DNA from: Mizuhopecten yessoensis
Taxonomy: Eukaryota
Assembly: GCF_002113885.1 (NCBI RefSeq)
Contig: NW_018405634.1
Location: 37,134 to 99,907 of the forward strand
Direction of reading: 5' to 3'
DNA: 62,774 nt
Below are positions 1 through 59,356 of the stretch, one piece after another. Position 1 is the stretch's first letter. Each line of letters opens with the position of its first letter. Position numbers and translations under genes: made by a program. Under the pieces are notes generated by a model. That model did no database searches and had not been told where the DNA came from. It worked only from the letters and a program-made list of their open reading frames with translations.

Positions 1-900
1 TCACCCACGTTATGTACACTTCCGTTCTAGACCCCTGGGTCACCCACGTTATGTACACTTCCGTTCTAGACCCCTGGGTCACCCACGTTATGTACACTTC
101 CGTTCTAGACCCCTGGGTCACCCACGTTATGTACACTTCCGTTCTAGACCCCTGGGTCACCCACGTTATGTACACTTCCGTTCTAGACCCCTGGGTCACC
201 CACGTTATGTACACTTCCGTTCTAGACCCCTGGGTCACCCACGTTATGTACACTTCCGTTCTAGACCCCTGGGTCACCCACGTTATGTACACTTCCGTTC
301 TAGACCCCTGGGTCACCCACGTTATGTACACTTCCGTTCTAGACCCCTGGGTCACCCACGTTATGTACACTTCCGTTCTAGACCCCTGGGTCACCAACGC
401 AATGTACACTTCCGTTGTAGACCCCAGGATCACCCACGTAATGTACACTTCCGTTGTAGACCCAAGGTTCACCCACGTAATGTACACTTCCGTTGTAGAC
501 CCCAAATTCACCCACGTAATGTACACTTCCGTTGTCGACCCCAGGTTCACCCACGTTATGTACACTTCCGTTCTAGACCCCTGGGTCACCCACGTTATGT
601 ACACTTCCGTTCTAGACCCCTGGGTCACCAACGCAATGTACACTTCCGTTGTAGACCCCAGGATCACCCACGTAATGTACACCTTCGTTGTAGACGACTG
701 GGTCACCCACGCAGTTTACATTTCCGTTGTAATCGCCAGGGTCACCCACGCAATGTACACTTCCATTGTATACCCGAGGGTCACCAACACAATGTACACT
801 TCCGTTGTAGACCCGAGGGTCACCAACACAATGTGCACTTCCGTTGTAGACCCGAGGGTCACCAACACAATGTACACTTCCGTTGTGGACCCCTGGGTCA
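1..900. repeat. 39-bp minisatellite, ~23 copies, running off the window start
   Basis: Unit TCACCCACGTTATGTACACTTCCGTTCTAGACCCCTGGG. The first ~10 copies are identical and later ones diverge. Confidence 0.97.
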
Positions 901-1578
901 TCCATGAAATATAAACTTCCTTCGCATCGCAAATGACCTCAAGGTCACTGACGACAGATAAAGCTTCGTTGTTATTAGACCCCGAGGTTAATATCAACAG
1001 ATAACTCTTCCATTGTTATGTGCCATACCGCAGAGTCACTAACAACAATACATTTACAACACCGGACCACTTGACGGTATTTTTTGGGTCTTTGCCAATA
1101 GTTAAACATAACACTTCGTTGTAACATTGACTAGTGACCTAAACGTACTCGCACAACCTATATCTGTGACCTTATCACTGAGGTCTAAAAATACTTTTTT
1201 TGAAAACATCCTACAAGGAGGACAAGTGATATGGTCTAAATGAGATGTTTAAATCCTTGTCAACTTATCAGTAAGATAGAGAAGGTGGGGGATATGGGTT
1301 ACGATTCACCTACCACATTCATGTTACACTCCTACAATATATCAGCTTTGGACAAATAGTTGTTGAAAAAATAAATACTGGATAACGTTTTAAGAAAACA
1401 TGTCACAAACCCTATACTTTCACTTAATTACGTTATAAAAAGTGTCTGCATACACATTGAATAATAACTGAGAACAATTAAAAATATCTTTGTAAATCCC
1501 AGAGCAGTTCATGAGTTATCTCTCATACGATAGCTTGTGCACGAGATAGAAAGAAATTACGGCAACGGAAAGATTGAG

Positions 1579-2125
1579 CATGTAAAGCGGGCCGGTGTCC
1601 TTCATGTAAAGCGGGCCGGTGTCCTTCATGTAAAGCGGGCCGGTGAAATTCATGTAAAGCGAGCCGGTGTCTTTCATGTAAAGCGGGCCGGTGTCCTTCA
1701 TGTTAAGCGGGCCGGTGTCCTTCACGTAACACGGGCCGTTGTCCTTCATGTAACGCGGGCCGGTGTAATTCATGTAAAGCGGGCCGGTGTCCTTCATGTT
1801 AAGCGGGCCGGTGTCCTTCATGTAACGCGGGCCGTTGTCCTTCCTGTAAAGCGGGCCGGTGTAATTCATGTAAAGAGGGCCGGTCTCCTTCATGTAAAGC
1901 GGGCCGGTCTCCTTCATGTAAAGCGGGCCGGTGTAATTCATGTAACGCGGGCCGGTGTAATTCATGTAAAGCGGGCCGGTGTAATTCATGGCCGGTGTCC
2001 TTCATGTAAAGCGGGTCGGTCTCCTTCATGTAAAGCGGGCCGGTGTAATTCATGTAACGCGGGCCGGTGTCATTCATGTAACGCGGGCCGGTGTCCGTCA
2101 TGTAAAGCGGGCCGGTCTCCTTCAT
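1579..2125. repeat. 24-bp minisatellite, ~23 copies
   Basis: Unit CATGTAAAGCGGGCCGGTGTCCTT. Confidence 0.97.
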
Positions 2126-2572
2126 GACGGAGATAACAAAGGAGTTGAAAACACTGTTTGAGGATCTCTATAGTGACAAGCCAATGTTTTTGCTCAAAAC
2201 TGAAGTAAAGCATCGAGGATCAAACCGAACTAAAGCTAGATTCCGACTTTGAACAGTTGTTGCTTGACATGGCAAGTAGGTTACCCGAATGTCGTGATGC
2301 TTAACCAACCTTAGCCCGTTGTGAAGTACTGTGAAACAGCAATATTGCTTATTATCAAATTTTCGGATGCAGTAGGGAGCACAATCAGGGGTAATTTTGT
2401 TATCTATATATTATTCAATTAAAACTTGGTAATAATGCAAATTGTGACAACTCAACAAGTTGATTTGTAGCTGATTTACAAATAAATACAGTCGGTGCGT
2501 TTCTGTGGTAGAAGAAACTGATCTAGTTATTGCAAGGTTTGGTGAAATGCCATTGCGAAGATGGGGACTTTT

Positions 2573-5500
2573 GTAAGTCTAACACCAGACTAGTAACAAC
2601 AACACACAAGTTTGAGTTAGTAGAGATTTATGTAAGTCTAACACCAGACTAGTAACAACTACACACAAGAGTGACTTAGTAGAGATTTGGGGGAGTCTAA
2701 CACCAGACTAGGTAAGTCTAACACCAGAGTAGTAACAACAACACACAGGTGTGAGTTAGTAGAGATTTATGTTAGTCTAACACCAGACTAGTAACAACAA
2801 CTCACAAGTTTGAGTTAGTAGAGATTTATGTCAGTCTAACACCAGCCTATAGTAACAACAACAGACAAGTGTGACTTAGTAAAGATTTATGTAAGTCTTA
2901 CACCAGACTATAGTAACAGCAGCACACAAGTGTGACTTAGTCGAGATTTATGTAAGTCTTACACCAGACTATAACACCAGACTAGTAACACCAACACACA
3001 AGTGTGACCTAGTAGAGATTTATGTACGTCTACGCCAGACTATAGCAACAACAACACACAAGTTTGAGATAGTAGAGATTTATGTAATTTTAACACCAGA
3101 CTAGTACAACAACACACAAGTGCAACAACACACAAGTGTGAAGTAGAGATTTATGTAAGCCTAACACCAGACTATAGTAACAGCAGCACACAAGTGTGAC
3201 TTAGCACAGATTTATGTAAGTCTTAAACCAGACTATAGTAACAGCAGCACACAAGTGTGACTTAGTCGAGATTTATGTAAGTCTAATACCAGACTAGTAA
3301 CAACTACACACAAGTGTGACTTAGTAGGGATTTATGTAAGTCTAATACCAGACTAGTAACAACAACCCACAAGTGTGACTTAGTCGAGATTTATGTAAGT
3401 CTTACACCAGACTATAACACCAGACTAGTAACACCAACACACAAGTGTGACGACTTAGTAGAGATTTACGTAAGTCTAACACCAGACAATAGTAACAACG
3501 ACACACAAGTGTGACTTAATAAAGATTTATGTAAGTCTTAAACCAGACTATAGTAACAGCAGCACACAAGTGTGACTTAGCACAGATTTATGTAAGTCTT
3601 AAACCAGACTATAGTAACAGCAGCACACAAGTGTGACTTAGGAAAGATTTATGTAAGTCTTACACCAGACTATAACACCAGACTAGTAACACCAACACAC
3701 AACTGTGACTTAGTAGAGATTTGGGGGAGTCTAACACCAGACTAGTACAACAACACACAAGTGTTGCTTAGTAGAGATTTATGTACGTCTAACACCAGAC
3801 TAGAAACAACAACACACAAGTGTGGCTTAGTAGAGATTTATGTCAGTCTAACACCAGCCTATAGTAACAACAACAGACAAGTGTGACTTAGTAAAGATTT
3901 ATGTAAGTCTTACACCAGACTATAACACCAGACTAGTAACACCAACACACAAGTGTGACGACTTAGTAGAGATTTAGGTAAGTCTAACACCAGACAATAG
4001 TAACAACGACACACAAGTGTGACTTAGGAAAGATTTATGTAAGTCTTAAACCAGACTATAGTAACAGCAGCACACAAGTGTGACTTAGTCGAGATTTATG
4101 TAAGTCTTAAACCAGACTATAGTAACAGCAGCACACAAGTGTGACTTAGCACAGATTTATGTAAGTCTTACACCAGACTATAACACCAGACTAGTAAAAA
4201 CAACACACAAGTGTGTCTTAGTAGAGATTTATGCAAGTCTAACACCAGACTAGTAACAATAACACATAAGTTTGAGTTAGTAGATATTTATGTAGGTCTA
4301 ACACCAGACTAGTAACTACAACACACAAGTGTGACCTAGTAGAGATTTATGTACGTCTAACACCAGACTAGTAACAATAACACATAAGTTTGAGTTAGTA
4401 GAGATTTATGTACGTCTAACACCAGACTAGTAAAAACAACACACAAGTGTGAAGTAGAGATTTATGTAATTTTAACACCAGACTAGTACAACAACACACA
4501 AGTGCGACATAGTAGAGATTTATGTACGTCTAACACCAGACTATAGTAACAGCAGCACACAAGTGTGACTTAGTCGAGATTTATGTAAGTCTAGCACCAG
4601 ACTATAGTAACAGCAGCACACAAGTGTGACTTAGTCGAGATTTATGTAAGTCTTACACCAGACTATAACACCAGACTAGTAACTACAACACACAAGTGTG
4701 AAGTAGAGATTTATGTAAGCCTAACACCAGACTATAGTAACAGCAGCACACAAGTGTGACTTAATAAAGATTTATGTAAGTCTTACACCAGACTATAACA
4801 CCAGACTAGTAACTACAACACACAAGTGTGAGTTAGTAGAGATTAATGTAAGTCTAACCCCAGACTAGTAACAACAACCCACAAGTGTGACTTAGTCGAG
4901 ATTTATGTAAGTCTAGCACCAGACTATAGTAACAGCAGCACACAAGTGTGACTTAGCACAGATTTATGTAAGTCTTACACCAGACTATAACACCAGACTA
5001 GTAACACCAACACACAAGTGTGACGACTTAGTAGAGATTTAGGTAAGTCTAACACCAGAGTAGTAACAACAACACACAGGTGTGAGTTAGTAGAGATTTA
5101 CGTAAGTCTAACACCAGAATGTAGTATCAACAACACGCAAGTGTGATTTAGTAGAGATTTATGTCAGTCTAACACCAGCCTATAGTAACAACAACAGACA
5201 AGTGTGACTTAGTAAAGATTTATGTAAGTCTTACACCAGACTATAACACCAGACTAGTAAAAACAACACACAAGTGTGACTTAGTAAAGATTTATGTAAG
5301 TCTTAAACCAGACTATAGTAACAGCAGCACACAAGTGTGACTTAGTAGAGATTTATGTAAGTCTACGCCAGACTATAGTAACAACAACACACAAGTGTGA
5401 CTTAGTAGAGATTTATGTAAGTCTAACACCAGACTATAGTAACAACAACACACAAGTGTGACTTAGCAGAGAGTTATGTGAGTCTAACACCAGACTATAG

Positions 5501-7225
5501 TAGCAACAACACACAAGTGTGACTTAGTAGAGATTTATGTAAGTCTAACAACAGACTAGTCACAACAACACCCAAGTGTGACTTAGCAGAGATTTATGTA
5601 AGTCTAACACCAGACTATAGTAGCAACAACACACAAGTGTGACTTAGTAGGGATTTATGTAAGTCTAACACCAGACTATAGTAACAACAACACACAAGTG
5701 TGACTTAGCAGAGATTTATGTCAGTCTAACACCAGACTATAGTAGCAACAACACACAAGTGTGACTTAGTAGAGATTTATGTAAGTCTACGCCAGACTAT
5801 AGTAACAACAACACACAAGTGTGAGTTAGTAGAGATTTATGTAAGTCTAACACCAGACTAGTAACAACTACACACAAGTGTGACTTAGGAGAGATTTATG
5901 TAAGTCTAACACCAGACATGTAACAACAGCACACAAGTGTGACTTAGTAGAGATTTATGTAAGTCTAACACCAGACTCTAGTAACAACAACACACAAGTG
6001 TGAGTTAGTAGAGATTTATGTAAGTCTAACACCAGACTAGTAACGACAACACACAAGTGTGACTTAGTAGAGATTTATGTAAGTCTACGCCAGACTATAG
6101 TAACAACAACACACAAGTGTGACTTAGCAGAGGTTTATGTAAGTCTAACACCAGACATGTAACAACAACACACAAGTGTGACTTAGCAGAGGTTTATGTA
6201 AGTCTAACACCAGACATGTAACAACAACACACAAGTGTGACTTAGTAGAGATTTATGTAAGTCTACGCCAGACTATAGTAACAACAACCCACAAGTGTGA
6301 CTTAGTAGAGATTTATGTAAGTCTACGCCAGACTATAGTAACAACAACCCACAAGTGTGACTTAGTAGAGATTTATGTAAGTCTACGCCAGACTATAGTA
6401 ACAACAACCCACAAGTGTGACTTAGTAGAGATTTATGTAAGTCTACGCCAGACTATAGTAACAACAACCCACAAGTGTGACTTAGTAGAGATTTATGTAA
6501 GTCTACGCCAGACTATAGTAACAACAACCCACAAGTGTGACTTAGTAGAGATTTATGTAAGTCTAACATCAGACTAGTAACAACAACACACAAGTGTGAC
6601 TTAGCAGAGGTTTATGTAAGTCTAACACCAGACATGTAACAACAGCACACAAGTGTGACTTAGTAGAGATTTATGTAAGTCTAACACCAGACTAGTAACA
6701 ACTACACACAAGTGTGACTTAGGAGAGATTTATGTAAGTCTAACACCAGACATGTAACAACAACACACAAGTGTGACTTAGCAGAGGTTTATGTAAGTCT
6801 AACACCAGACATGTAACAACAACACACAAGTGTGACTTAGCAGAGGTTTATGTAAGTCTAACACCAGACATGTAACAACAGCACACAAGTGTGACTTAGT
6901 AGAGATTTATGTAAGTCTAACAGCAGACTAGTAACAACAACACACAAGTGTGACTTAGAAGAGATTTATGTAAGTCTAACAGCAGACTAGTAACAACAAC
7001 ACACAAGTGTGACGTAGCAGAGATTTATGTAAGTCTAACACCAGACTAGTAACAACTACACACAAGTGTGACTTAGGAGAGATTTATGTAAGTCTAACAC
7101 CAGACATGTAACAACAACACACAAGTGTGACTCAGTTGAGATTTTTGTAAGTCTAACACCAGACTATAGTAACAACACACAAGTTACTGTTAGTAAAAAT
7201 ATATGTAAGTCTAACACCAGACACG
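2573..7225. repeat. ~58-60-bp satellite array, ~75-80 copies
   Basis: Unit GTAAGTCTAACACCAGACTA(TA)GTAACAACAACACACAAGTGTGACTTAGTAGAGATTTAT. Confidence 0.98.
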
Positions 7226-10047: not shown

Positions 10048-11144
10048 AAGAAACCATGTTGTCATGTTTTGAACTGGGAGTATACAAAATATCAAACACT
10101 AAAGAAGAAAAGCGTGTTTGCTCATCAACAAAAAGCTGTAGTTACTGACTGATTAACGTGCGATTAATACATCGGGTTTAGTTTGAACCGTTCCAAGACA
10201 AGATAAGGCAACTTTGGTAATTCCTTGGGTTGGCTTGCAACAACGACTAAAACCATGATATATTTCTTTATATTATTAGCAAAAGGAAAAATATTGTATT
10301 TCTCGAAGTTATCATAGAAATATAATATGACTGTGACAAAAAGACTATCATGTTTCTAAATGTTCCTAAAATAGATTTTAATAAAATTCCTTCTTTGAGG
10401 GATTAGGATATTCTGTATAACCAAGACATCGCGCAACCCCGGCCTCCATTGAGATATGTTTTGAGAATAAGTATTATATTGGCACAAGTATGACACAATC
10501 AATTATCTGGCTGGGCACTCGATGATACTCTCCTTGTCTTTGGTATAATTATCACATACCAACTTTATGCAACATGTTTGTGTGGCCTTATTCCTGTCTT
10601 GGTAATCAGGAAGCGCAAGCAGATAGAGATATAAGAGCAAATATTGATTTGTCATAGAGAAAACTCAAAATATTTTCAATTAGAAATAAATTAACGAACA
10701 ATTCTTATAAAATTAGATACAAAAAGATTATGTTTTCGTATTTCTCTGTTACAGTATCATAGGCATAATAGGCATATTTAATGTTTTTAAACTACTTGAT
10801 AGATACTCTCTAGATAGGAAAAAGTACGCTCTCTGGAAAACCTCGTCTTATTCTCCTTGTACTTTTACAATGGTCCAGTTGTAAATCTTGCCATTGTGGT
10901 ATGGATTTTGAGTTCGAATTGCGGATTTGAATTCTCTATGGGGTTTATGTAATGCTTGCCATAATTGCATTGTCGCTTGAAAAGAACATCTGTTAAACTC
11001 TGTCTTAGTTTAGCTTCTATGAACAACAGTGTTTGTTATCGAGATAAAATAGAATATCATTACAAGGAAAACGTGTTTTCCTTTGTATCACTAGATTACA
11101 ACACCCAGTACGAGTATTGAAAGACCCCTTTGTAGCCATGTGTA

Positions 11145-12301
11145 ACAATGGGGTGTTTCGTGTGTACTATGGGGTGTTTCGTGTGTACTATGGGGTGTTT
11201 CGTGTGAACAATGGGGGGGTTTCGTGTGTACTATGGGGGGTTTCGTGTGTACTATGGGGGTTTTCGTGTGTACTCTGGGGTGTTTCGTGTGTACAATGGG
11301 GTGTTTCGTGTGTACTTTGGGGTGTTTCGTGTGAACAATGGGGTGTTTCGTGTGTACTATGGGGAGTTTCGTGTGTACAATGGGGTGTTTCGTGTGTACT
11401 TTTGGGTGTTTCGTGTGAACAAGGGGGTGTTTCGTGTGTACTATGGGGTGTTTCGTGTGAACAATGGGGGGGTTTCGTGTGTACTATGGGGGGTTTCGTG
11501 TGTACTATGGGGTGTTTCGTGTGTACTATGAGGTGTTTAGTGGGTACTATGGGGTGTTTCGTGTGTACTATGAGGTGTTTCGTGGGTACTATGGGGGGTT
11601 TCGTGTGTACTATGGGGGTTTTCGTGTGTACTATGGGGTGTTTCGTGTGTACTATGAGGTGTTTCGTGGGTACTATGGGGGGTTTCGTGTGTACTATGGG
11701 GGTTTTCGTGTGTACTCTGGGGTGTTTCGTGTGTACTATGGGGAGTTTCGTGTGTACAATGGGGTGTTTCGTGTGTACAATGGGGTTTTTCGTGTACTAT
11801 GGGGTGTTTCGTGTGAACAATGGGGGGGTTTCGTGTGTACTATGGGGGGTTTCGTGTGTACTATGGGGGTTTTCGTGTGTACTATGGGGTGTTTCGTGTG
11901 TACAATGGGGTGTTTCGTTTGTACAATGGGGTGTTTCGTGTGTACGATTGGGCGTTTCGGGTGTACTCTGGGGTGTTTCGTGTGTACAATGGGGGGTTTC
12001 GTGTGTACTATGGGGTGTTTCGTGTGTACTATGGGGTTTTCGTGTGTACTATGGGGTGTTTCGTGTGTACTATGAGGTGTTTCGTGGGTGCTATGGGGTG
12101 TTTCGTGTGTACTATGGGGGTTTTCGTGTGTACTATGGGGTGTTTCGTGTGTACTATGGGGTGTTTCGTGTGTACTATGGGGTGTTTCGTGTGTACTATG
12201 AGGTGTTTCGTGGGTACTATGGGGTGTTTCGTGTGTACTATGGGGGTTTTCGTGTGTACTATGGGGTGTTTCGTGTGTACTATGGGGTGTTTCGTGTGTA
12301 C
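11145..12301. repeat. 21-bp G/T-rich minisatellite, ~55 copies
   Basis: Unit GGGGTGTTTCGTGTGTACTAT. Confidence 0.97.
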
Positions 12302-32945: not shown

Positions 32946-35900
32946 CTGCAAAGAAACAATCAATAATCCCATTTAAACACTTACACGAGATAAACAACCA
33001 ACCGTTCTAGTCTTTATACAAGTGCAGAAACATAAATCGGAGTTTAAACAAACAAACAATTAAGAATTCCGGCAAGTACAAAAACAACCAATTATTGTCT
33101 ACAGACAAGTACACAGACAACCAATTATTGTCTACAGACAAGTACACAGACAACCAATTATTGTCTACAGACAAGTACACAAACAACCAATCATTGTCTA
33201 CAGACAAGTACAGAGACAACCAATTATTGTATACAGACAAGTACACAGACAACCAATTATTGTCTACAGACAAGTACACAGACAACCAATTATTGTCTAC
33301 AGACAAGTACACAGACAACCAATTATTGTCTACAGACAAGTACACANNNNNNNNNNNNNNNNNNNNNNNNNNNNNNNNNNNNNNNNNNNNNNNNNNNNNN
33401 NNNNNNNNNNNNNNNNNNNNNNNNNNNNNNNNNNNNNNNNNNNNNNNNNNNNNNNNNNNNNNNNNNNNNNNNNNNNNNNNNNNNNNNNNNNNNNNNNNNN
33501 NNNNNNNNNNNNNNNNNNNNNNNNNNNNNNNNNNNNNNNNNNNNNNNNNNNNNNNNNNNNNNNNNNNNNNNNNNNNNNNNNNNNNNNNNNNNNNNNNNNN
33601 NNNNNNNNNNNNNNNNNNNNNNNNNNNNNNNNNNNNNNNNNNNNNNNNNNNNNNNNNNNNNNNNNNNNNNNNNNNNNNNNNNNNNNNNNNNNNNNNNNNN
33701 NNNNNNNNNNNNNNNNNNNNNNNNNNNNNNNNNNNNNNNNNNNNNNNNNNNNNNNNNNNNNNNNNNNNNNNNNNNNNNNNNNNNNNNNNNNNNNNNNNNN
33801 NNNNNNNNNNNNNNNNNNNNNNNNNNNNNNNNNNNNNNNNNNNNNNNNNNNNNNNNNNNNNNNNNNNNNATTGTCTACAGACAAGTACACAAACAACCAA
33901 TTATTGTCTACAGACAAGTACACAGAAAACCATTAATTGTCTACAGACAAGTACACAAACAACCAATTAATGTCTACAGACAAGTACACAAACAACCAAT
34001 TATTGTCTATAGACAAGTACACAGACAACCAATTATTGTCTGCAGACAAGTACACAGACAACCAATTATTCTCTCCAGACTAGTACACAGACAACCAATT
34101 ATTGTCTACAGACAAGTACACAAACAACCAATTATTGTCTACAGACAAGTACACAGACAACCAGTTATTGTCTACAGACAAGTACACAGACAACCTATTA
34201 TTGTCTACAGACAAGTACACAAGCAACCAATTATTGTCTACAGACAAGTACACAGATAACCAATTATTGTCTGCACACAAGTACACAGACACCCAATTAT
34301 TCTCTCCAGACAAGTACACAGACAACCAACTATTGTCTACAGACAAGTACACAAACAAACAATTATTGTCTACAGACAAGTACACAGACTAACAATTATT
34401 GTCTACAGACAAGTACACAGATAACCAATTATTGTCTGCACACAAGTACACAGACACCCAATTATTCTCTCCAGACAAGTACACAGACAACCAACTATTG
34501 TCTACAGACAAGTACACAGACAACCTATTATTGTCTACAGACAAGTACACAAGCAACCAATTATTGTCTACAGACAAGTACACAGACTAACAATTATTGT
34601 CTACAGACAAGTACACAGACAAACAATGATTGTCTACAGACAAGTACACAGACAACCAATGATTGTCTACAGACAAGTACACAGACAACCAGTTATTGTC
34701 TACAGACAAGTACACAGACAACCAATTATTGTCTGCACACAAGTACACAGACAACCAATTATTCTCTCCAGACAAGTACACAGACAACCAATTATTGTCT
34801 ACAGACAAGTACACAAGCAACCAATTATTGTCTACAGACAAGTACACAGACAACCAGTTATTGTCTACAGACAAGTACACAGACAAACAATTATTGTCTA
34901 CAGACAAGTACACAAACAACCAATTATTGTCTACAGACAAGTACACAAGTACACAAACTTACAAACATGTATCATAGGTAACATATAAATATACAAATAA
35001 CCAATCAGAATTTACAGACAAATATTACAACTACAAGAGGATACCAAAGTATCAACCAAACCCGAAATTCGAACACAAAAACCGGGTATTTAGCTTACAC
35101 TTGTAATCTTAAAAGTGGACTACAATACAGCTAAAGGCAAAATATCAGTGTTTGATTCAAACGAATCTGGGCATTTCGGTTATTCAGAAAAAGTTGTTTA
35201 AGTTTTAAACATATTTGACCCCTGTGATCTTGAATACCAGTGAAGGTCATTTATTTGAACAGACTTGGTAGCCCTTCATCCCAGCATGCTACTGGCCAAA
35301 TATCATCACTCTGGGCATTTTGGTTATTCAGGAGAAGCTGATTAAAGTTTTTAACATACATGTATTTGTCTCCTGTGACCTGGAATATAGGTGAAGGTCA
35401 TTTATTTTAATAAACTTGCTAGCCCTTCATCCCAGTTTGCTTCTGGCCAAATATCATCACCCTAGGCCTTGCGGTTATTAAGAAGAAGTTGTTTAAAATA
35501 AAATATTGACGCCGGACGCCGGACGCCGGACGCCGGACGCCGGACGGACGACGGACGACGCACCACGGCATAAGCTCACTTCGCCCTTCGGGCTAGGTGA
35601 GTTAAAAACGTAGGAAGGAGAATTAGGCCAGATATCCTGGAAGGATAAAGTCTTCAGCTTTATCGTTGACAATCGCCAACGAAACAACAGCACACACTAA
35701 TGAGCATAATTCAACTTCGACCTCAAAATGTCACAAGGAAGTAGCTTATTTCCAAGACCTCAAAATGTCACAAGGAAGTAGCTTATTTCCAAGACCACAA
35801 GATGTCACAAGGATGTAGCTTATTTCCCAAGACCTCAAAATGTCACAAGGAAGTAGCTTATTTCCAAGACCTCAAGATGTCACAAGGAAGTAGCTTATTT

Positions 35901-47900: not shown

Positions 47901-49640
47901 GGTCATTGTAGGAGGGGTGTTGTGTGTCATTGTAGTAGGGGTGTTGTGTGTCATTGGGGGAGGGGTGTCGTGTGTCATTGTAGGAGGGGGGTTGTGTGTC
48001 ATTGGAGGAGGGGTTTTTGTGTGTCATTGGAGGAGGGGTGTTGTGGGTCAGTGGAGGAGGGGTGTTGTGTGTCATTGGAGCAGGGGTGTATGTGTGTCAT
48101 TGGAGGAAGGTTGTTGTGTGTCATTGGAGGAGGGGTGTTGTGGGTCAGTGGAGGAGGGGTGTTGTGTGTCATTGTAGGAAGGGTGTTGTGTGTCATTGTA
48201 GCTAATTAGATAAATACTACTGTAGTAGAACACCAAGGAAATAATGCTGTGAATTAACTCGAGGTGTATGTGTGTCATTAGAGGAGGGGTGTCTGTGTGT
48301 CCTTGGAGGAGGGGTGTATGTGTGTCATTGGAGGAAGGTTGTTGTGTGTCATTGGAGGAGGGGAGTTGTGTGTCATTGGAGGAGGGGTGGATGGGTGTCA
48401 TTGGAGGAGGGGTGTTGTGTGTCTATCCCGGGGTGTTGTGTGTCATTGGAGGAGGGGTGTTGGGTGTCATTGGAGGAGGGGTGTTGTGTGTCCTTGGAGG
48501 AGGGGTGTATGTGTGTCATTGGAGGAGGGGGGTTGTGTGTCATTGGAGGAGGGGTGTTGTGGGTCAGTGGAGGAGGGGTGTTGTGTGTCATTGTAGGAGG
48601 GGTGTTGTGTGGCATTGGAGGAGGGGTGTATGTGTGTCATTGGAGGGGGGGTGTTGTGTGTCATTGGAGGAGGGGTGTTGTGTGTCATTGTTGGAGGGGT
48701 GTTGTGTGTCATTGGAGGAGGGGTGTTGTGTGTCATTGGAGGAGGGGTGTTGTGTGTCATTGGAGGAGGGGTGTTGTGTGTCATTGGAGGAGGGGTGTCG
48801 TGGCAAAGAGATTCACGTTGTTGCATGCTTTTTGGGGGAGATAAAAGCTGATTTCATAATCACAATTGTTTATTAGAAAACGAAATGCATACATACTTGT
48901 CGAATAGATTTCCTGAATTCATCCCGAGACAACCTCCAGTTCTTGTCCTTGTCTGTTTGTGTAAACAAATCTATCAGTCTCATTTTGTTCCGTTTAAGAA
49001 ATAGGTCCAATATACGGATACCAAGTGGTGAGGGGACCTTGACACAGGGAACACTCTTGATTTCAGCACTAATGGGGGTCTCTGGGGGAGGAGCCATCTC
49101 CACCTCTTTTGGCATCCTCTCTTGCTCCATACGTCGCAGAACACGCTTCTCCAAGGCAGTTTTCTTTGGCTTATTTCTCAACCAGTCTTCACTGAGTCCC
49201 ATGTTTTCTATGTTATTTCGAAACTTCTGTCTTTCTTGGATCCATTTTTTGTATTGAAACTCTTTATCTTTTTCAACTTCTCTCTGAATTTCCTCTCGGT
49301 CATACTCAAGTTTATCCACTAAGGGCTCAGGAGGTTTCACCACAGTATTGATAATAAGTGGGGCAGGTTTAGGTTTCTGGTTTAAGTAACATCCCAGTCG
49401 GTGTCTCATCTTTGTTTCCATTGGAGGAGCAACAATGACCCTCTTTCTGCTGAGTGGGCCACCAAATATCTTCACTGCAGCCTTATAATGCTTGACATGT
49501 GGCAGGTCCCTGTGCTTGAATAGACCCATACGCTCATCCTCTGGGATGTGGTCAAGGTTGTATTCATCAAACAACCGATCAAGGGGGAAGCTGATATCTG
49601 AATCCATGGCGTCCAGCGCCCCACCCCTATGTGGTGGCAT
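32672..49640 (-). CDS. EFCAB12: EF-hand calcium-binding domain-containing protein 12-like; spliced CDS complement(join(32672..32945,40600..40909,42586..42796,45846..46258,46904..47099,48897..49640)), 2148 nt, 715 aa
   Basis: Six ORF segments are joined by GT-AG introns with consistent phases (0,1,0,1,2). There is a paired EF-hand (DKDKNWRLSRDEF / DENFDEELDYKEL). Motifs recalled from vertebrate EFCAB12 occur in the same order: RKRVIVAPP, WLRNKPKKTALE, IGDRAIDNHCMKSTLQG, LLHPPD, MTFEEYDKLT, NAFWPGHLMDRVRL. Confidence 0.9.
33085..34947. repeat. 33-bp minisatellite in the last EFCAB12 intron, containing an assembly gap (33347-33869)
   Basis: Unit ACAGACAAGTACACAGACAACCAATTATTGTCT. Confidence 0.97.
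35085..35608 (-). mobile_element. Second, truncated copy of the 26851-27817 Helentron-associated element
   Basis: Same internal repeats, (GACGCCG)n and terminal hairpin AGCTCACTT..GGTGAGTTAAAAA. Confidence 0.85.
35718..35995. repeat. 37-38-bp minisatellite, ~7 copies
   Basis: Unit GACCTCAAAATGTCACAAGGAAGTAGCTTATTTCCAA. Confidence 0.95.
36040..36290 (-). mobile_element. Penelope-like retroelement RT fragment
   Basis: The minus strand reads IYPSELEL ... FPFL/DHNIPPSPTYAIYMWNLIRYSRACSEYHDFRDR, typical of Penelope-like RT C-terminal regions. Confidence 0.75.
37071..37296. mobile_element. Small TA-flanked MITE (Tc1/mariner-like)
   Basis: TA|CTGTAAA ... TTTACAG|TA. Confidence 0.6.
37945..38995. 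repeat. 47-bp minisatellite, ~22 copies
   Basis: Unit GGGACATTTATCACTGGGGTAAATCTAGTTTACAGGTGATGACAGAA. Confidence 0.97.
39000..39910. repeat. ~0.9-kb purine-rich low-complexity tract
   Basis: Strong G/A excess on the plus strand with no fixed period. Confidence 0.85.
40600..40909 (-). CDS. EFCAB12: EFCAB12-like coding exon 5 (VLLHPPDHP...EEYDKLT)
   Basis: Acceptor ttcctttccag|TG (phase 1). Donor AAG|GTAATT (phase 2). Confidence 0.88.
41415..41502. mobile_element. 88-bp piggyBac-like MITE
   Basis: TTAA|TCCTTTCACC ... GGTGAAAGGG|TTAA. Confidence 0.7.
41505..42612 (-). repeat. 62-65-bp minisatellite made of the EFCAB12 exon-4 3' end plus splice donor, 18 copies
   Basis: Minus-strand unit ACCCTCAGTAAAGCCCTGCTAGAGAGAG|GTATGTACTTCAATAATATACAGGAGGGGACATC. 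The first copy is the real exon end. Confidence 0.95.
42586..42796 (-). CDS. EFCAB12: EFCAB12-like coding exon 4 (SPKKIQED...TLSKALLER)
   Basis: Acceptor gttgacag|TCC (phase 0). Donor GAG|GTATGT (phase 1). Conserved IDNHCMKSTLQG motif. Confidence 0.88.
43665..44220 (+). mobile_element. Non-autonomous element with subterminal inverted repeat and long 3' hairpin (Helentron/HINE-like architecture)
   Basis: TTTTTCTCGCACCT ... AGGTGCGAGAAAAA, then a ~145-bp hairpin TTACCTGTAACTGAGCGAGATCGG...CCGATCTCGCTCAGTTACAGGTAA. Inserted into a T-run of the minisatellite unit with no clear TSD. Confidence 0.7.
44290..44623 (-). mobile_element. tRNA-headed CORE-type SINE
   Basis: Minus strand shows a degenerate A/B-box head GGAGGCACGGTAGTCTAG..., CORE-like TCCTTCAGCAAGATACTTTACTC..CTGTAAATGGGTAC, an L2-like tail CGCTTTGAGAC and an (ATT)n end. 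Confidence 0.75.
45540..45692. repeat. ~27-bp minisatellite, ~6 copies
   Basis: Unit ACACACAGGTAATCCCACATCTAACTG. Confidence 0.85.
45846..46258 (-). CDS. EFCAB12: EFCAB12-like coding exon 3 (low-complexity S/G/K region, then FLHPPDIDTRPE...THKM)
   Basis: Acceptor tttttgtgccag|GG (phase 1). Donor ATG|GTAAGT (phase 0). Open frame of 137 codons. Confidence 0.85.
46904..47099 (-). CDS. EFCAB12: EFCAB12-like coding exon 2 (SKVPLSEP...TNSHA, second EF-hand)
   Basis: Acceptor ttacag|TCC (phase 0). Donor GCAG|GTATAC (phase 1) matches the next exon. Confidence 0.85.
47313..48800. repeat. 24-bp G-rich minisatellite in two blocks within an EFCAB12 intron
   Basis: Unit GTGTCATTGGAGGAGGGGTGTTGT. Interrupted at ~48200-48262 by a copy of the flank 47250-47312. 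Confidence 0.97.
48897..49640 (-). CDS. EFCAB12: EFCAB12-like coding exon 1 (MPPHRGG...RKSIRQ, 248 codons, includes first EF-hand)
   Basis: ATG at 49640 with an in-frame upstream TAG. Donor CAA|GTATGT after 48897 (phase 0). Acceptor tttgtttacag precedes 49738. Confidence 0.9.
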
Positions 49641-51870: not shown

Positions 51871-52260
51871 TTCAAAACAAGGGACGTAATGGTGTTGCAA
51901 GTTGTTCTAATTATCTCCCTTGTGCCTTGTAGTAGTGAAAAACAGCTCCTTACACAACGGATTTTATTGCAGTGAGTCGTTCACCGAAATTAAATATTAT
52001 ATTTTGTTCCACTTAATTGCATTAGCTCTTGGTCCATAGATACATGTAAGTCACTTTGATTTATAATTACTTGTAAATGGTGGAAATTAAAATGAAATTG
52101 TCAGTAGACGAAGGGGAACCTATTAGATTTATAAAAACGCGTTTGACACAGTGCCTCACCAACGTCTGTTAAAAAAACTACATGGAAATCAGAGGGAAAA
52201 TTCTGAACTGGATAAGAGCGTTTAAGAAGGAAACACAGCAAAAAGCTGTGGTACATGGAA

Positions 52261-52702
52261 GAGCGACCGGTTGGGCAAAAGTAAAATAAGCGGAGCACCC
52301 CATGGCAGATTTTATTCTTCCCGCGCGCGCATTGCGTCACGTCACAGGTAGTGGGAATCCGTGCTCCACGGATTCCACGTCTACCCGTGACCACTACCTG
52401 ACACGTCACCCGACCCACACACTCCAGCTATCACCCGTCGAGAGAGGAGCTCTCAATTGCACGTTACCAAGCATCACGCCATAGTCCCTGGTAAGTCTGT
52501 GTTTTATCATTACTTCATTCCATTTATATGTAGTCATATTCATGTCATTGTAAATAAGTGTATATGATAGGGTGTGTACAGCGAGAGTGTATTTATACCT
52601 GTTACATATTATTGTTACAGGATCCCTTGTACCCATCATCATCATCATCTACATTATTGAATAAAGACATCAAAGAATCATCAAATAGTCTCGAGTTCTA
52701 CA
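52261..52702 (+). mobile_element. LTR-like segment (5' boundary uncertain) followed by a tRNA-Lys PBS
   Basis: AATAAA at ~52660, ends ...GAGTTCTACA, then T plus a perfect TGGCGCCCAACGTGGGGC (52704-52721), the PBS for tRNA-Lys(CTT). Confidence 0.7.
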
Positions 52703-52726
52703 TTGGCGCCCAACGTGGGGCGCCAA

Positions 52727-53149
52727 TTTAACAGAGTGCATGATTAATTAAATATAAAGCACTGCCACCGCATGGGACCTCTGGCTTACTAGTCTTACGC
52801 TCAACCGATCGAGCTAAAGAGAAGTTCTCCCTAGCCGAGACGGTAGGAAGCGGCTAGTATTTTACCAGGTGACATTGGCGCCCACGTAGGGACCCGGGAG
52901 ATATGACAAAAATACTCAGCAATACTTGCAAAGGAATCTCTATGATCCCTGGAAAACTCGGGACGAGTTTTTTCTTAAAGGGGGAGTATGTCACCCTGGT
53001 AAAATACTAGCCGCTTCCTACCGTCTCGTCTAGGGAGAACTTCTCTTCAGCTCGATCGGTTGAGCGTAAGACTAGTAAGCCAGAGGTCCCGGGTTCGATC
53101 CCATGCGGAGGCAGTGATTTATATTTAATTAATCATGCGCTCTGTTACA
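52727..53149 (+). mobile_element. Miniature LTR retroelement (TRIM; Helenus-like, tRNA-derived LTRs) with its two LTRs in inverted orientation
   Basis: Left repeat 52727-52874 is the reverse complement of the right repeat 52989-53149 (TGTCACC...TGTTACA). Degenerate PBS at 52876. PPT AAAGGGGGAG at 52977-52986. tRNA-like A/B boxes at 53040-53113. Confidence 0.8.
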
Positions 53150-53602
53150 TTTATAAACGATTTACCAGAACATGCCGAAACAATAATCAGATTATTTGCA
53201 GACGACGCCAAATTGATAGACAGAGCAGGGTTACTACTGGAAACAGATAGAGTGCAAAGGGATGGAGATAAACTAGGAAACTGATCAGGAAAATGGCAAT
53301 TTAAATTCAATGCTGCTAGATGTAAATCACTACATATTGGTCACAACAATGGAAAAGTCTACAGTATGAAAGAAAATAGGACGGAGAAAGACATGGAGCA
53401 ATTTTGGGAATAAAAGGATTTTTGAGCAATTTTTGAATTCAACAAATATATCTGGTTGTGTGGCAAAAGTCTACAGTATGATAGGTATGGACAAGAACCT
53501 ATGTTAACCATTTACCACTAATAAGACCCAATGGTGCAAGCCAACGCTTGGTGAATACTGCGTAGAGCCGACATCGAAGGATCAAAAAGCAACGTCGCTA
53601 TG

Positions 53603-54043
53603 CAGGTCCAGTACACTCTGCCGATTGAGCTATATAGCTGTAAAGACCTATAATAGCTCTATTGACCTATCTGAAATAGGTCTTTTGAGCTATTTTCAAG
53701 TGATTTTCTTTTTTAAGGAAAACGAAACAAAGTCGCATTTAAAAGAAGATTGTATCATTAGGTTGATAACAATAGACATTAAAAATGAGTATTCTTTTTA
53801 AAAAATAATGATGTAAAAAAATCGGAAATTTTACATTTATGAAAAATGAAAATAAACATCTAACTGTATTCTTTTTGTAGTCAACATTACCATTAACCTT
53901 ACTGTTTTATGCGACTTTGCTTTAATTTAATGAAATTTGAAATCTGAGAAAATATAGCTCAATACAGCTATAATTTATAGGTGTATATAGCTATATAGGT
54001 CTTTATAGCTATATAGCTCAATCGGCAGAGTGTACTGGACCTG
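53603..54043. mobile_element. MITE with long TIRs and a 5-bp TSD (CTATG)
   Basis: CTATG|CAGGTCCAGTACACTCTGCCGATTGAGCTATATAGCT ... AGCTATATAGCTCAATCGGCAGAGTGTACTGGACCTG|CTATG. Confidence 0.9.
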
Positions 54044-55879
54044 CTATGTGCCACGCTTAATGAACCAAATTGTCCGTGTCGTGTTAAGCAGGTGTTGTAC
54101 AACCAATTAGTGAGCGTCCATCCACTAGGAGGAATTTAAGTCCCTCACATTTCTTTTGCAGTTGCTTTCCGTTGGTTCCATTTCATTCTGGTGGGATCGT
54201 ATAGAACCCAATGTACTACATACCGGTAATGGCAATAGAAAACACAACAAAGGCTACAAATTGGTGAAAGCATATAAAGATCTGACATATAAAATATAGA
54301 AAGAGGAGGAATTATATGGACCTTTCAAAACAATACAGTTCGATACTGTCGACAAGGAGGCGTTCTTTGATATAGAAGATCAATCACGAACCAGAGGGAA
54401 TCAATTCAAACTGTAAAAACAAAACAAAAAACAAAGTTGAACGGCAGGAAAAACTGGGGTGTTTTTTTAACAGAATTATCTCAGACTGGTACAGCCTACC
54501 GAACGCTTTAGTTGAAGCTGAAACCTTAAACAGTTTCAAAAGCAAGATCAACGACCACTGGATGAACACGGCAATGACATCCGAGCCAGGCGGTTACTGC
54601 TAGGTGGGAAAAATCGAAAAGTAAAGTATTCATATGAATTTACAAAATATCAGCTGGGAAACAGGTTTCATGCACTCCTAAATCGCAATAGACCATTCAT
54701 TATGTAGAATATGGAACTTTCATGTATTTCCTCATCCCAAAACTAGGAACATGATCCTACCAAAAAAAAACACGAAAACAATCAAGGATGATCAGAACAC
54801 CTGAAGTATGAATGTAGATGCAGCTGACTGGAGATTGAATGAGGCTACTCGCTAATCTAGCATAGTGCTGTATATCGGACAACCGACAAGTTCAGAACCA
54901 AAACAAATGAGAACAAATAAATGTGATTGTAGATAAGACAATGTGATGTAACTTTTTAGATAATGCTATAAATAATGCGCCAACCCAGGCATACATAATG
55001 CGCAAACCCAGGTATATCAAGGAAGAAACAACAAAAGAACGGTCTCACTAGCCGCGCCTATCCAACGACCGGAGGGACAGTACGGACAGTAAATTACGTG
55101 TATAAAGTACATGCATGATAACGCTAAATATGGATTTAATCTTGATATTGTGTTGATTGTATGTCCGGCGAAATTTCTGGCGTTTAGCATGGATTACTCT
55201 TAATTGCAGTGGTGTGATGACGTTTCGGCTTCCAGGTAAATCTCTAATACCGAACCAATCCCATTTGGCTAAGAACTAATCCAGAAAAGAAAAGAAATAT
55301 TTTTACTATTTTTAACTACCGTCAACATTGTATAAAACAATACATAACCTCCGACCCCAAGGTTGACCACCATACGCAAACAGATTGATTGACGAACAAA
55401 CAAGACAACTATATACCTACTCTACTACATAAGCAGGAATAAAAGAAGGCATATTTATGTTTGGTGGTTTGTGTTAATGTTTTAATTAAGTCTTTCTTCC
55501 TAAGTAAAATTAAATAGAAGAATAAAAAACAAAAACAAAAACGATCGAACTATCCCATTTTTTCAGTCATGTTACCTGAACTTACATTATTTTTTAAGTA
55601 ATATGACACATTACACATAGGCAGTAATTAAGAAATAAAGGGTGACGATATTTATAATCAGTTGACGTGGATTTCTTTGACGTTAACCATTGTTCTGTAT
55701 CGCTAAGCAGGACGTGCTTGAAAGACTTGTTGGCATACATGTTTTTTTTATACCCTTTATCGTTTTATAATACTTCAAGACCACGTATATATTCTTAACC
55801 ATGTCTGAGTTCAGGTAGGTCATGGTCTAAACATTGGTACATTTTAACAACATAATTACTGATTTTATCCCTACATATA

Positions 55880-56365: not shown

Positions 56366-56505
56366 TAAAGAATGCTAAACCCAAACCCAATTACTGATTT
56401 TTTTCTTATAGTGTGAAAATACAAGACTCTCTGTTCTCGCTTTTTGAAATTAGCACAAATTGGCTAGCATATCAGAAATGGTAATCCATTTGCGACCATA
56501 CTCTT

Positions 56506-57035
56506 TAACATGAGCATATTACTGATTACATAATTTCTGTTCATAGTCGTAACATGAGCATATTACTGATTACCTAATCTCTGCTCATAGTCGTAACATG
56601 AGCATATTACTGATTACATAATCTCTGCTCATAGTCGTAACATGAGCATATTACTGATTACCTAATCTCTGCTCATAGTCGTAACATGAGCATATTACTG
56701 ATAAAATAATCTCTGCTCATAGTCGTAACATGACCAAATTACTGACTACATAATCTCTGCTCATAGTCGTAACATGAGCGTATTACTTATTACATAATCT
56801 CTGCTCATAGTCGTAACATGAGCATATTACTGATAACATAATCTCTGCTCATAGTCGTAACATGACCAAATTACTGATTACATAATCTCTGCTCATAGTC
56901 GTAACATGAGCGTATTACTGATTACATAATCTCTGCTCATAGTCGTAACATGAGCATATTACTGATTACATAATCTCTGCTCATAGTCGTAACATGGGCG
57001 TATTACTGATTACATTATCTCTGTTCATAGTCGTA
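56506..57035. repeat. 44-bp minisatellite, ~12 copies
   Basis: Unit TAACATGAGCATATTACTGATTACATAATCTCTGCTCATAGTCG. Confidence 0.96.
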
Positions 57036-57174
57036 AGGAGAACGTCCCAAGAAGAGGCGATAATCTTACAATGCCGCCTGAAGGTTTTATATAATAAACT
57101 CGATACACGTGGACAGATGTTCACGTTGATTTTCTGTTCCAAGTTGTCCAAGCATTGTTAGCTTAAAAACGCTT

Positions 57175-57685
57175 CTCGCAAGCTTTTTGTCTTCACGCGA
57201 GCTTTTTGTCATCACACAAGCTTTATCTCTTCATGCAAGCTTTATATCTTCCCACAAGCTTTGTGTCTTCCCACAAGCTTTTTGTCTTACTACAAGTTTT
57301 ATGTCTTCACACAAGCTTCATGTCTTCCCATGAGCTTTAGGTCTTCACACAAGCTTTGTGTCTTCCCACAAGCTTTGTGTCTTCCCACAAGCTTTATGTC
57401 TTCCCATGAGCTTTAGGTCTTCACACAAGCTTTGTGTCTTCCCTCGAGCTTAAGCTGTGTCTTCATAAATGCTTTATGTCCTCACATGACCTATGTGTCT
57501 TCATAAAAGCTTTGTCTTCACACAAGTTTATCTTTTCCCACGACCTTTATGTCTATATAAAAGCTTTGTCTTCCCACGAGCTTTATTTCTTTATAAAAGC
57601 TTTGTCCTTACATATAAGCTTTGTGTCTTCCCACGAGCTTTATTTCTTCCCGTAAGCTTTGTCTTTACACGAGTTTTATGTCTTA
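57175..57685. repeat. ~19-20-bp degenerate minisatellite
   Basis: Unit CACAAGCTTTGTGTCTTCC. Confidence 0.9.
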
Positions 57686-59029
57686 ACATAATCTATTTCA
57701 ATTTTATTTATGTAAACCTGTTACAGATACAGGCTTTCATCGCATAGCGTAAACATAAAATCCGGAAGATATAATAATTGGGGCGATATATCTGACGAAT
57801 TTGACGAGTATCATTTTATTCTAGTGTTTAATTAATTCTTATTCTTATATTAGAACAAAATATTCTAAGTCATTTTTCTGGCGTCGTCCTTCTGTCTTCA
57901 AGCTTGTACAATTCCTGCCTGTAAGGAATGTAAAAGAACTGAATAACCTTGGTAATTGTTTGTGTATCGCCACTGCCAGGCGTGAAAGCTACTAGTAAAA
58001 TCATTGTGTTTTATGACACGGGTGTTACACATTGTTCAGCCTCCGTTATCTTGTATACAATTCATTTACTATGCATACAATTCATTTACTATGTAATACT
58101 CCTATCAGCTGTACTGCTATTTTAATCCTAATTTGTTGAGTTCAGCTTTGAGCTCGGGTATTTAAAATCCAACAATCATTTCACAATATCGTTTACTCTT
58201 ACATGTTTTAAAAATACAATTATTCGAAGTGCTTAATTTTAACCAGTATTTAATCATTCGAAGTTTCTACAAAAAAGATAATATCAATCTTCCTAACTGA
58301 AGTTCTACATGTCACGGTGGTCAAGCTAGTGGTTTAGCTTCCCATGTACATATTTTATATTAAATTACTATTTTATAAATACTTGCGCTGTGTGTGTGTG
58401 TGTGTGTGTGTGTCGGTTTGTATATATCTGTCACGGTGGGTGTTATTGTGACGTGTGAGAGGTGAGAGATAATATTGGCTGAGAGAGACACTTTGACCCT
58501 GCATGAACCCATTTGCACGTGGGAGTCTCACCTGAGCACCCGACGTGTATTTCAACACCAGTCTTGAGTTAACCCTGTAGGAAGCAGCAATAATTAACTG
58601 TAGCTCTAGATCTAAGGCTGTAAGGCTACTATTTTCAATACATTTTTTATCTAAAATATTCTTAACAGCTGTAAATAATATATTGTTAAATACATTTCAG
58701 GATAGTATATACATACTTCTACTTAAATTAATAACTTACAAATATATGCCCGTGGGTATATGTACAGCCCACGTGGTCACATGACATTGTCGCTATATAT
58801 ATAACTAGTAGGATCAACGTGGGTATGAAAATAACGTTAGGGGACTTGGGTAGAATCACGGGATTAGGTGTTATCTAAGTCCGTGATAGAATTAAATTCA
58901 TAACTAATAATAGTATAGACTTATGTAGGTAACTGATACATACAGTATAAATTATAGTGAACAAATTATCATTTACACGTAATTTGGATGTATAGTCGCT
59001 TGTATAATTTTATTTCAGGTCGCCGTTTC

Positions 59030-59138
59030 CTCGTGTCTCCGTGTACATGTGTCTCCTTGCCAATGTGTCTCCTTGTACATGTGTCTCCTTGCCAATGTGT
59101 CTCCTTGTACATGTGTCTCCTTGCCAATGTGTCTCCAT
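59030..59138. repeat. Short ~16-bp tandem repeat with alternating variants
   Basis: TGTGTCTCCTTGCCAA / TGTGTCTCCTTGTACA. Confidence 0.85.
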
Positions 59139-59215
59139 GTTGCGTTTTAAGTGTAATAAATAAAACCAACTATATTGACAAATTGTCTTGGAATACTATA
59201 TATATATATGTATAT

Positions 59216-59356
59216 TGTAGTACGGAAAACCCATTAAATAGTATTAGTGTACTCGTGTGACATTGGCGCCCAACGTGGGGCCCCGGGTAACACTGACAAG
59301 AATCGCTTTGACCTCTGCAAAAACTCGGGACGAGCTCTTACCTGGAGAGTTCTACA
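59216..59356 (+). mobile_element. 141-bp remnant of a miniature LTR element with a perfect tRNA-Lys PBS
   Basis: TGTAG...GTGACA-T-TGGCGCCCAACGTGGGGC(59264-59281)-CCCGGG..TGACAAGAAT..AAAACTCGGGACGAG..GAGTTCTACA. The internal part is similar to 52893-52976. Confidence 0.7.

Follow-up and report, generated by a model that had tools for sequence, protein, structure and literature searches.

A Gypsy LTR joined head-to-head to a Helenus LTR at a tRNA-Lys primer-binding site within a single insertion in Mizuhopecten yessoensis

The closest described relatives of the locus reported here are the Helenus (TRIMp3) families Helenus-1_MiYe and Helenus-3_MiYe, which are already known (Kojima 2024, PMC10886601). 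In the available text of that paper, Helenus has a tRNA-like LTR, a tRNA-Lys primer-binding site (PBS), a PPT, a 4-bp target-site duplication (TSD), and a Gypsy partner inferred from PBS likeness alone; how a TRIM depends on its autonomous partner is stated as not known, transcription by RNA polymerase III is left unproven, and the words "chimeric" and "inverted" each occur 0 times in the main text. Template-switch complex elements and TRIM chimeras are known as well. The complex elements of Sabot and Schulman (2007, PMC1950507) are portrayed, in the sections available, as three LTRs within one TSD that arose by reverse transcription, with all LTRs direct, the outer two alike, and the switch at the minus-strand jump. 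TRIM chimeras of sugar beet and pear (PMC13570524, PMC4079214) carry LTRs from another family and form multi-LTR arrays with or without a TSD; their donors are other TRIMs in direct orientation, and the accessible portions of the two papers contain neither a PBS-level mechanism nor a tRNA-copy signature. Finally, the part of PMC5371799 available describes the plus-strand strong-stop DNA of Ty1 and Ty3 as a tRNA-tailed LTR that is unproductive for transfer, the genomic PBS staying uncorrected. In Ty3, the first such DNA copies the tRNA (12 nt of it, in yeast) and builds up after its displacement as a dead-end product; the minus strand terminates with the R-U5 complement (PMC5371799).

We analyzed a 62,774-nt stretch of a M. 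yessoensis contig (NW_018405634.1), hereafter the window, whose positions are used throughout. At 52316-53149, a LINE fragment is interrupted by a block that runs from a Gypsy LTR through a tRNA-perfect PBS, an inverted Helenus LTR, a Helenus-type PBS, an internal region, and a PPT to a Helenus LTR. Its features are as follows.

52121-52319, + strand: left half of the host LINE reverse-transcriptase fragment (target site), 72-81% to five related copies
52316-52702, + strand: LTR-A, a Gypsy LTR, 2.8-3.9% substitutions against five other copies
52704-52721, + strand: PBS 1, exact 18-nt complement of the tRNA-Lys(CTT) 3' end, by sequence match
52708-52725, - strand: mirror PBS, the putative product of switch 1 (overlap GGGC/GCCC at 52718-52721; new bases 52722-52725)
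52727-52874, - strand: inverted Helenus LTR, a mosaic (Helenus-1 U3; Helenus-3 tRNA-like part and U5)
52875-52988, + strand: Helenus-1-type internal region, 114 nt, 87-93% to 39 other copies
52876-52893, + strand: Helenus-type PBS (PBS 3)
52977-52988, + strand: PPT of the Helenus internal region
52989-53149, + strand: 3' Helenus LTR, same mosaic as the inverted copy (A-box-like motif near 53048; B-box-like motif at 53092-53101)
53150-53153, + strand: right copy of the 4-bp TSD (TTTA), the left copy being read in contigs of runs X2 and X7
53150-53437, + strand: right half of the host LINE fragment, 70-78% to related copies and recognized by translation

The block shares with the Helenus of PMC10886601, as far as its text is available, the tRNA-like LTR, tRNA-Lys PBS, PPT, and 4-bp TSD, but its 5' LTR is inverted and a Gypsy LTR stands ahead of it. 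Like the complex elements in the available sections of PMC1950507, it has three LTRs with a TSD around the whole complex; unlike them, its outer LTRs are unrelated rather than near-identical, its middle LTR is inverted, and the joint is the PBS. The yeast species in the text seen of PMC5371799 is a biochemical by-product, whereas the tRNA-tailed LTR in the window was apparently joined to another family's cDNA and integrated. Among titles and the opening lines of abstracts, a partial coverage of the literature, we found no report of a head-to-head PBS fusion or of a two-family LTR element made by second-strand transfer, and, within similarly partial coverage, none of a tRNA-perfect PBS as a mark of two-family elements; neither of the first two appears in the available text of PMC12312487, PMC6934838, PMC6894440, or PMC6088434. 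The locus is a non-coding, rearranged single insertion with no predicted function, a rearranged derivative of Helenus parts rather than a canonical Helenus member. As one dead copy, its worth lies in the evidence it offers for pairing TRIMs with helpers.

The initial annotation placed an LTR at 52261-52702. An LTR is indeed present, but it starts at 52316; position 52261 falls in LINE sequence, which fills 52121-52319 and shares its last 4 nt (TCTT) with LTR-A. Complete copies of LTR-A are about 427 bp long, at least about ten occur among the best matches, and solo copies carry a 4-bp TSD. The copy in the window is without its first 34 nt, lost by a 42-nt deletion between two TCTT, and a search for the missing start elsewhere in the window gave no match. 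As an autonomous owner of this LTR, we found a Gypsy (Ty3) family whose copy L009/L063 has a TG...CA LTR, a PBS, the order gag-protease-RT-RNase H-integrase, and a second LTR. Its domains are, in order, PNMA gag (E 5e-11), protease (E 2e-4, below cut-off), RVT_1, RT_RNaseH, and Integrase_H2C2; the integrase core gave no match in this copy, and its 3' LTR stops after 84 nt. LTR-A and Helenus have in common the primer, the last 7 bases of the PPT, TGT...TACA termini, and a 4-bp TSD, bearing out the proposal that two different LTR families sharing one primer, here a Gypsy family and a Helenus TRIM, meet at this locus. Another Gypsy family, LTR-B, agrees with the Helenus PPT over 9 bases. We also note that the motif CCTGGTAAG (52487-52495 in LTR-A) occurs in LTR-A, B, B-like, D, and E and that CCTGGTAAA lies near the start of the Helenus LTR; the two are possibly a shared splice-donor or promoter motif.

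The short element was assigned to Helenus by by-eye comparison with the published supplement sequences, as available, and by diagnostic columns among genomic copies: the internal region and U3 resemble Helenus-1_MiYe, and the tRNA-like part and U5 resemble Helenus-3_MiYe. Its A- and B-box-like motifs are the same as in the published LTRs in that supplement, the B box being absent from the inverted copy through a 12-nt deletion, and neither ARAGORN nor Rfam called a tRNA in the Helenus LTR. The internal region of 114 nt (52875-52988) is short and non-coding, with PBS and PPT, and the TSD at this locus is TTTA; in ordinary Helenus copies with both ends, a 4-bp TSD is exact in 7/14 and has one mismatch in 3 more. 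Two direct LTRs of the family, the usual arrangement, are not found here, the 5' copy being inverted. Both LTRs are mosaics, with 9/9 diagnostic columns of Helenus-1 type up to position 46 and of Helenus-3 type from position 52. Among 164 distinct LTR copies from the fetched loci, these are the only 2 with the mosaic, and each is the other's nearest copy. A genome-wide 35-base pattern allowing 1 mismatch gave 4 matches: the two LTRs of the block, a solo mosaic LTR at C262, and one family-3 copy. The mosaic is thus rare rather than unique to the locus. Its switch point lies just before the tRNA-like part, where the predicted Pol III start would place the U3/R border. The solo mosaic LTR (L206, G000:C262, near 561864) sits between a 7-bp duplication, compared to the usual 4 bp.

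The two Helenus LTRs differ by 6 substitutions over 148 aligned bases and by two deletions, a divergence about equal to that between LTR-A copies (2.8-4.7%). This suggests that the structure is old and argues against an assembly or library fold-back artefact, since a fresh fold-back would not differ so. Inverted repeats are prone to such artefacts, and in 3/4 sequencing runs no listed contig spans the inversion; we nevertheless consider this explanation very improbable, also in view of the run that does, described below.

The perfect 18-nt PBS on the + strand at 52704-52721 is present as annotated (0 expected from 100 shuffles), and its 18-mer is the reverse complement of the last 18 nt, CCA included, of this genome's own tRNA-Lys(CTT), which was identified from 8 pattern matches in the genome, 4/4 of those fetched being called tRNA-Lys(ctt). 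A further PBS had been read on the - strand. It matches at 16/18 positions (52708-52725; 0 in 100 shuffles), yet it does not count as a third site in its own right, since the opposite strand of PBS 1 supplies 14 of its 18 bases, and only 4 bases, the spacer, and the LTR end are new. The PBS reported at 52876 is real (52876-52893) but has the Helenus-type form, one base shorter and with 3 mismatches to the tRNA type, a form shared by 83 of the 84 sites that fit the Helenus PBS pattern. Thus the inverted LTR (52727-52874) does have outward-facing PBS starts on both sides, and the claim of three PBSs within 200 bp holds for PBS-like sites, which amount to two PBSs and one mirror junction. The near-self-complementarity of the PBS, likewise claimed, amounts to 12 pairs at -15.0 kcal/mol, which is ordinary for its G+C content, self-pairing being equally stable in 16% of 2000 shuffles. 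Two tRNA-type tails pair at -15.0 kcal/mol, a tRNA-type with a Helenus-type tail at -14.3 kcal/mol, and a tRNA-type tail directly with the Helenus minus strand at -20.3 kcal/mol.

One double template switch, at the PBS quasi-palindrome and then at the LTR terminal repeat, explains all three PBS-like sites. Switch 1 has the overlap GGGC/GCCC. Switch 2, at 52874/52875, is also required and was absent from the first reading; it lies precisely at the LTR's first base and goes through ACAT, with 6/7 bases of the LTR terminal repeat.

Searching the genome for the fused PBS and its flanks, as the initial annotation had advised, yielded two more fused PBSs. Both are self fold-backs, and the window alone joins two families head-to-head. 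A tight pattern found 2 sites (control 0). A loose pattern found 5 compared to 3 in the control, with the PBS core behind an LTR end in 3/5 and an unrelated spacer in 2/5, so that the loose pattern by itself is not a signal above control. At C5578, an LTR with an 18-nt PBS and a 14-nt fold-back has inserted by itself into a repeat, at the cost of one base and without a TSD; the 3 other PBS-bearing copies of its family agree with the tRNA over 15 nt only, which favors a tail copied from the tRNA. At C2733, the fold-back is short and iterated. A family of inverted-LTR Helenus copies was sought and rejected: the junction pattern, which misses the window's own junction where one base is absent, gave 5 matches with no Helenus LTR at any. 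A MITE-like element with 51-bp terminal inverted repeats lies at 53602-54044 of the window, and a copy with the same ends lies inside the LTR at C5578.

The junction of LINE and LTR-A in the window lies at TCTT (52316-52319). Related LINE copies, five of which run unbroken from the left half into the right half, have 4 more bases after TCTT and then TTTA, which resumes at 53150; one related copy matches RVT_1 at E 1.8e-5, below the curated cut-off. Past 52319, contigs of runs X2 and X7 read those 4 LINE bases, TTTA, and the LTR-A start. Together with the related LINEs, this left junction indicates that TTTA flanks the whole block, from LTR-A through the 3' Helenus LTR. An X1 contig departs from the window at the same place with an overhang equal in length. 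The 42-nt deletion in the window allele removed the left TSD along with the 34 nt of LTR-A; X4 has the same allele, and the deletion came after integration. A 5-bp TSD, suggested by TTTAT on either side in the window, was ruled out, as the left copy is the LINE's own sequence and the true left TSD is deleted.

One TSD around a two-family block implies that it integrated once. The usual origin of complex elements, according to the available sections of PMC1950507, is recombination of neighboring insertions, and separate Gypsy-A and Helenus insertions close together in the LINE could have been fused by deletion and inversion, with no co-packaging. Such recombinants are described there as being without a TSD, whereas here the LINE is continuous, with one 4-bp duplication and no bases lost in the undeleted allele. 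Two further two-family elements also retain exact TSDs in the assembly (L085, TATT; L192, ATCA). The shared TSD largely refutes an origin from separate insertions, which we regard as improbable. It is instead very probable that both families were in one cDNA before integration, as is required whether the inversion arose during reverse transcription or by a later chromosomal switch.

We favor, at a probability of roughly 0.55, the reading in which both switches occurred during reverse transcription, with Gypsy plus-strand strong-stop DNA co-packaged with Helenus. The Gypsy strong-stop DNA (LTR-A plus an 18-nt tRNA copy) would pair head-to-head with the same tail of Helenus via the quasi-palindrome, and extension to the template end, the first base of the Helenus LTR, would yield the inverted LTR. 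The new 3' end would then use ACAT to re-anneal to the Helenus minus strand, at its U5/PBS border, and copy PBS, internal region, PPT, and LTR. Both outer ends would be normal LTR ends, which integrase could insert as a block with a 4-bp TSD. By analogy, Ty3-type intermediates would supply both substrates, a free tRNA-tailed Gypsy LTR and a Helenus minus-strand U5/PBS border, and the stable imperfect Helenus PBS suggests a genomic PBS that stays uncorrected as in Ty3. PBS 1 as a tRNA copy and PBS 3 in the Helenus genomic form fit the meeting of a plus strand copied from the tRNA with a minus strand of Helenus. That the inversion ends precisely on the first base of the LTR also speaks for this order of events. 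Against it, switch 2 has 4 exact bases only, and of the 12 non-standard loci with a readable 3' LTR end, just 2 (L085 and L192) have a TSD at the LTR start in the assembly. The proposed joining at the PBS by annealing or template switching in reverse transcription thus agrees with the one TSD, as for one integrated cDNA, and the inversion itself would, slightly more likely than not, date from that stage.

The same final sequence would result if a direct three-LTR chimera had integrated first and replication or repair had later changed strands once, moving from PBS 1 to PBS 2 on the other strand, copying the middle LTR backwards, returning at the terminal repeat, and deleting the first internal region. 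The inversion would then be chromosomal, and co-packaging would still hold. The precursor would read LTR-A, PBS, internal region, PPT, Helenus LTR, PBS, internal region, PPT, Helenus LTR; a simple two-LTR precursor with one PBS is ruled out because both PBS types occur in the block. Locus L008 has the first six of these parts in direct order, with LTR-A joined directly to a Helenus internal region; it terminates in a Helenus LTR followed by a perfect PBS and lacks a TSD. Helenus often forms tandem arrays (at each of 9 loci, 2-4 of the 84 sites lie together), and the -14.3 kcal/mol pairing of a tRNA-type PBS with the Helenus plus-strand PBS would serve the switch. End-joining repair leaves iterated fold-backs, and the one at C2733 resembles such a product. 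The absence of a fused junction from X2 contigs is as expected from an uninverted allele. This history nevertheless needs two extra events, tandem formation and the later switch, and a tandem formed by a second jump of the minus strand would carry a Helenus-1 R-U5 in its middle LTR, barring a mosaic parent, whereas the middle LTR here has that of Helenus-3. The solo LTR at C262 may point to such a parent, able to form tandem arrays. X1 has the inversion with a left junction unlike the window's, so the inversion extends beyond the window's allele. Overall, we hold a later chromosomal switch to be unlikely, although a serious competitor of the reverse-transcription reading.

We compared contigs, not raw reads, of four runs (X1, X2, X4, and X7) with the window. 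The fused PBS and the second junction are spanned in 1/4 runs, X1, where three overlapping contigs pass through the inversion (52692-52758 with 0 differences, 52729-52802 with 0, and 52836-52902 with 1). The shorter sides of the spanning contigs measure 29-31 and 28 letters, at or under the 31-letter matching rule, which leaves some room for an artefact; against one, X1 covers the whole inversion in this overlapping fashion and differs from the window at the left junction. No spanning contigs are among those listed for X2, X4, and X7. X2 contigs cover both flanks and the internal region yet show no fused junction, which reflects either the simplification of contigs or an allele without the inversion. 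At depth 4, X4 leaves 52644-52715 uncovered, neither X4 nor X7 has cover on the right flank, and X4, carrying the deleted allele of the window, was not treated as an independent run. With such coverage holes, we did not take the lack of junction contigs in X2, X4, and X7 as disproof. The block at 52316-53149 is a real, rearranged insertion. In X1, contigs across the element and the initial 200 nt of the flank to its right (52690-53375) reach a depth of 70-300, compared to 28 and 9 on the outer flanks.

The Helenus PBS pattern occurs at 84 sites genome-wide: 73 after a direct Helenus LTR or LTR end (L131, with a 17/18 tRNA-like site, counted among them), 7 after other sequence, 3 unreadable, and 1, this locus, after an inverted LTR. 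Chimeras are commonly of the direct kind, the head-to-head arrangement being a dead end. The genome holds 22 tRNA-perfect PBSs, of which 10 precede a Helenus-like internal start. Non-Helenus sequence lies upstream of 8/10 of these compared to 7/80 Helenus-type PBSs (Fisher p = 3e-6; 1.5e-5 when L178 and L188, which are nearly identical, count as one; 1.2e-3 with better-verified LTRs only), sites that are not fully independent, as L180 and L184 share private changes. Foreign LTR identity rests on other copies for A, B, B-like, and E, on termini and a TSD for L192, and on termini or poly(A)-like motifs for the rest. L123, L124, L139, L148, and L079 were rejected as foreign LTRs because they look like 5'-truncated Helenus copies; the first four are included in the 7 non-Helenus cases, which works against the enrichment. 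Helenus thus seems to travel with several Gypsy families. The suggestion that the TRIM was co-packaged with the family of the upstream LTR draws support from the single TSD and the shared primer, PPT end, and termini, but the partner is not exclusive, as several LTR families are joined to Helenus internal regions.

We tentatively propose, and give this slightly less than even odds, that the shared tRNA primer site acts as a universal joint between unrelated LTR families, through which tRNA-tailed plus-strand strong-stop DNAs of many Gypsy families become attached to Helenus cDNA, either in direct order (PBS to anti-PBS) or head-to-head (via the tRNA-Lys quasi-palindrome), and are integrated. 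If so, the genome would be a readable fossil map of the helper particles that carry a TRIM, Helenus would ride promiscuously with any family using its primer, and Pol II and Pol III LTRs could be swapped by this route. Elements bounded by a TSD, with a Gypsy LTR at one terminus, a Helenus LTR at the other, and a tRNA-perfect PBS as their mark, would identify partners directly and could be counted in any assembly. Two-family elements also suggest that integrase tolerates the ends of two unrelated families and that inter-family second-strand transfer is frequent enough for LTR reshuffling.

Several other rearranged elements came to light. At 58310-59347 of the window, a second chimera combines an LTR-like repeat of 953 bp (TG...CA) with a tRNA-perfect PBS at 59264 and some 65 nt resembling the Helenus-1 internal region; it ends before the PPT, is flanked by a 9-bp direct repeat (58301-58309 and 59348-59356), and looks like an aborted, aberrantly integrated cDNA. 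L179 (G000:C1642, near 192724) is an inverted Helenus unit in which a partial 5' LTR folds back into a direct U5, followed by a tRNA-perfect PBS and a gag-like fragment; here, too, an LTR piece lies between outward-facing PBSs. At L100/L174 (G000:C5575, near 1503729), a Gypsy 3' LTR, with RT-RNase H and integrase pieces, leads directly into a Helenus PBS, internal region, and LTR start. L149 (G000:C4304:128300-132100) holds two Helenus arrays of three LTRs each, which diverge in opposite directions and are separated by about 1 kb. Minisatellite arrays with units of about 19, 24, 33, 44, 60, and 78 bp occupy 1-7200, 11100-12300, 33000-35000, 48000-48800, and 56400-57700 of the window.
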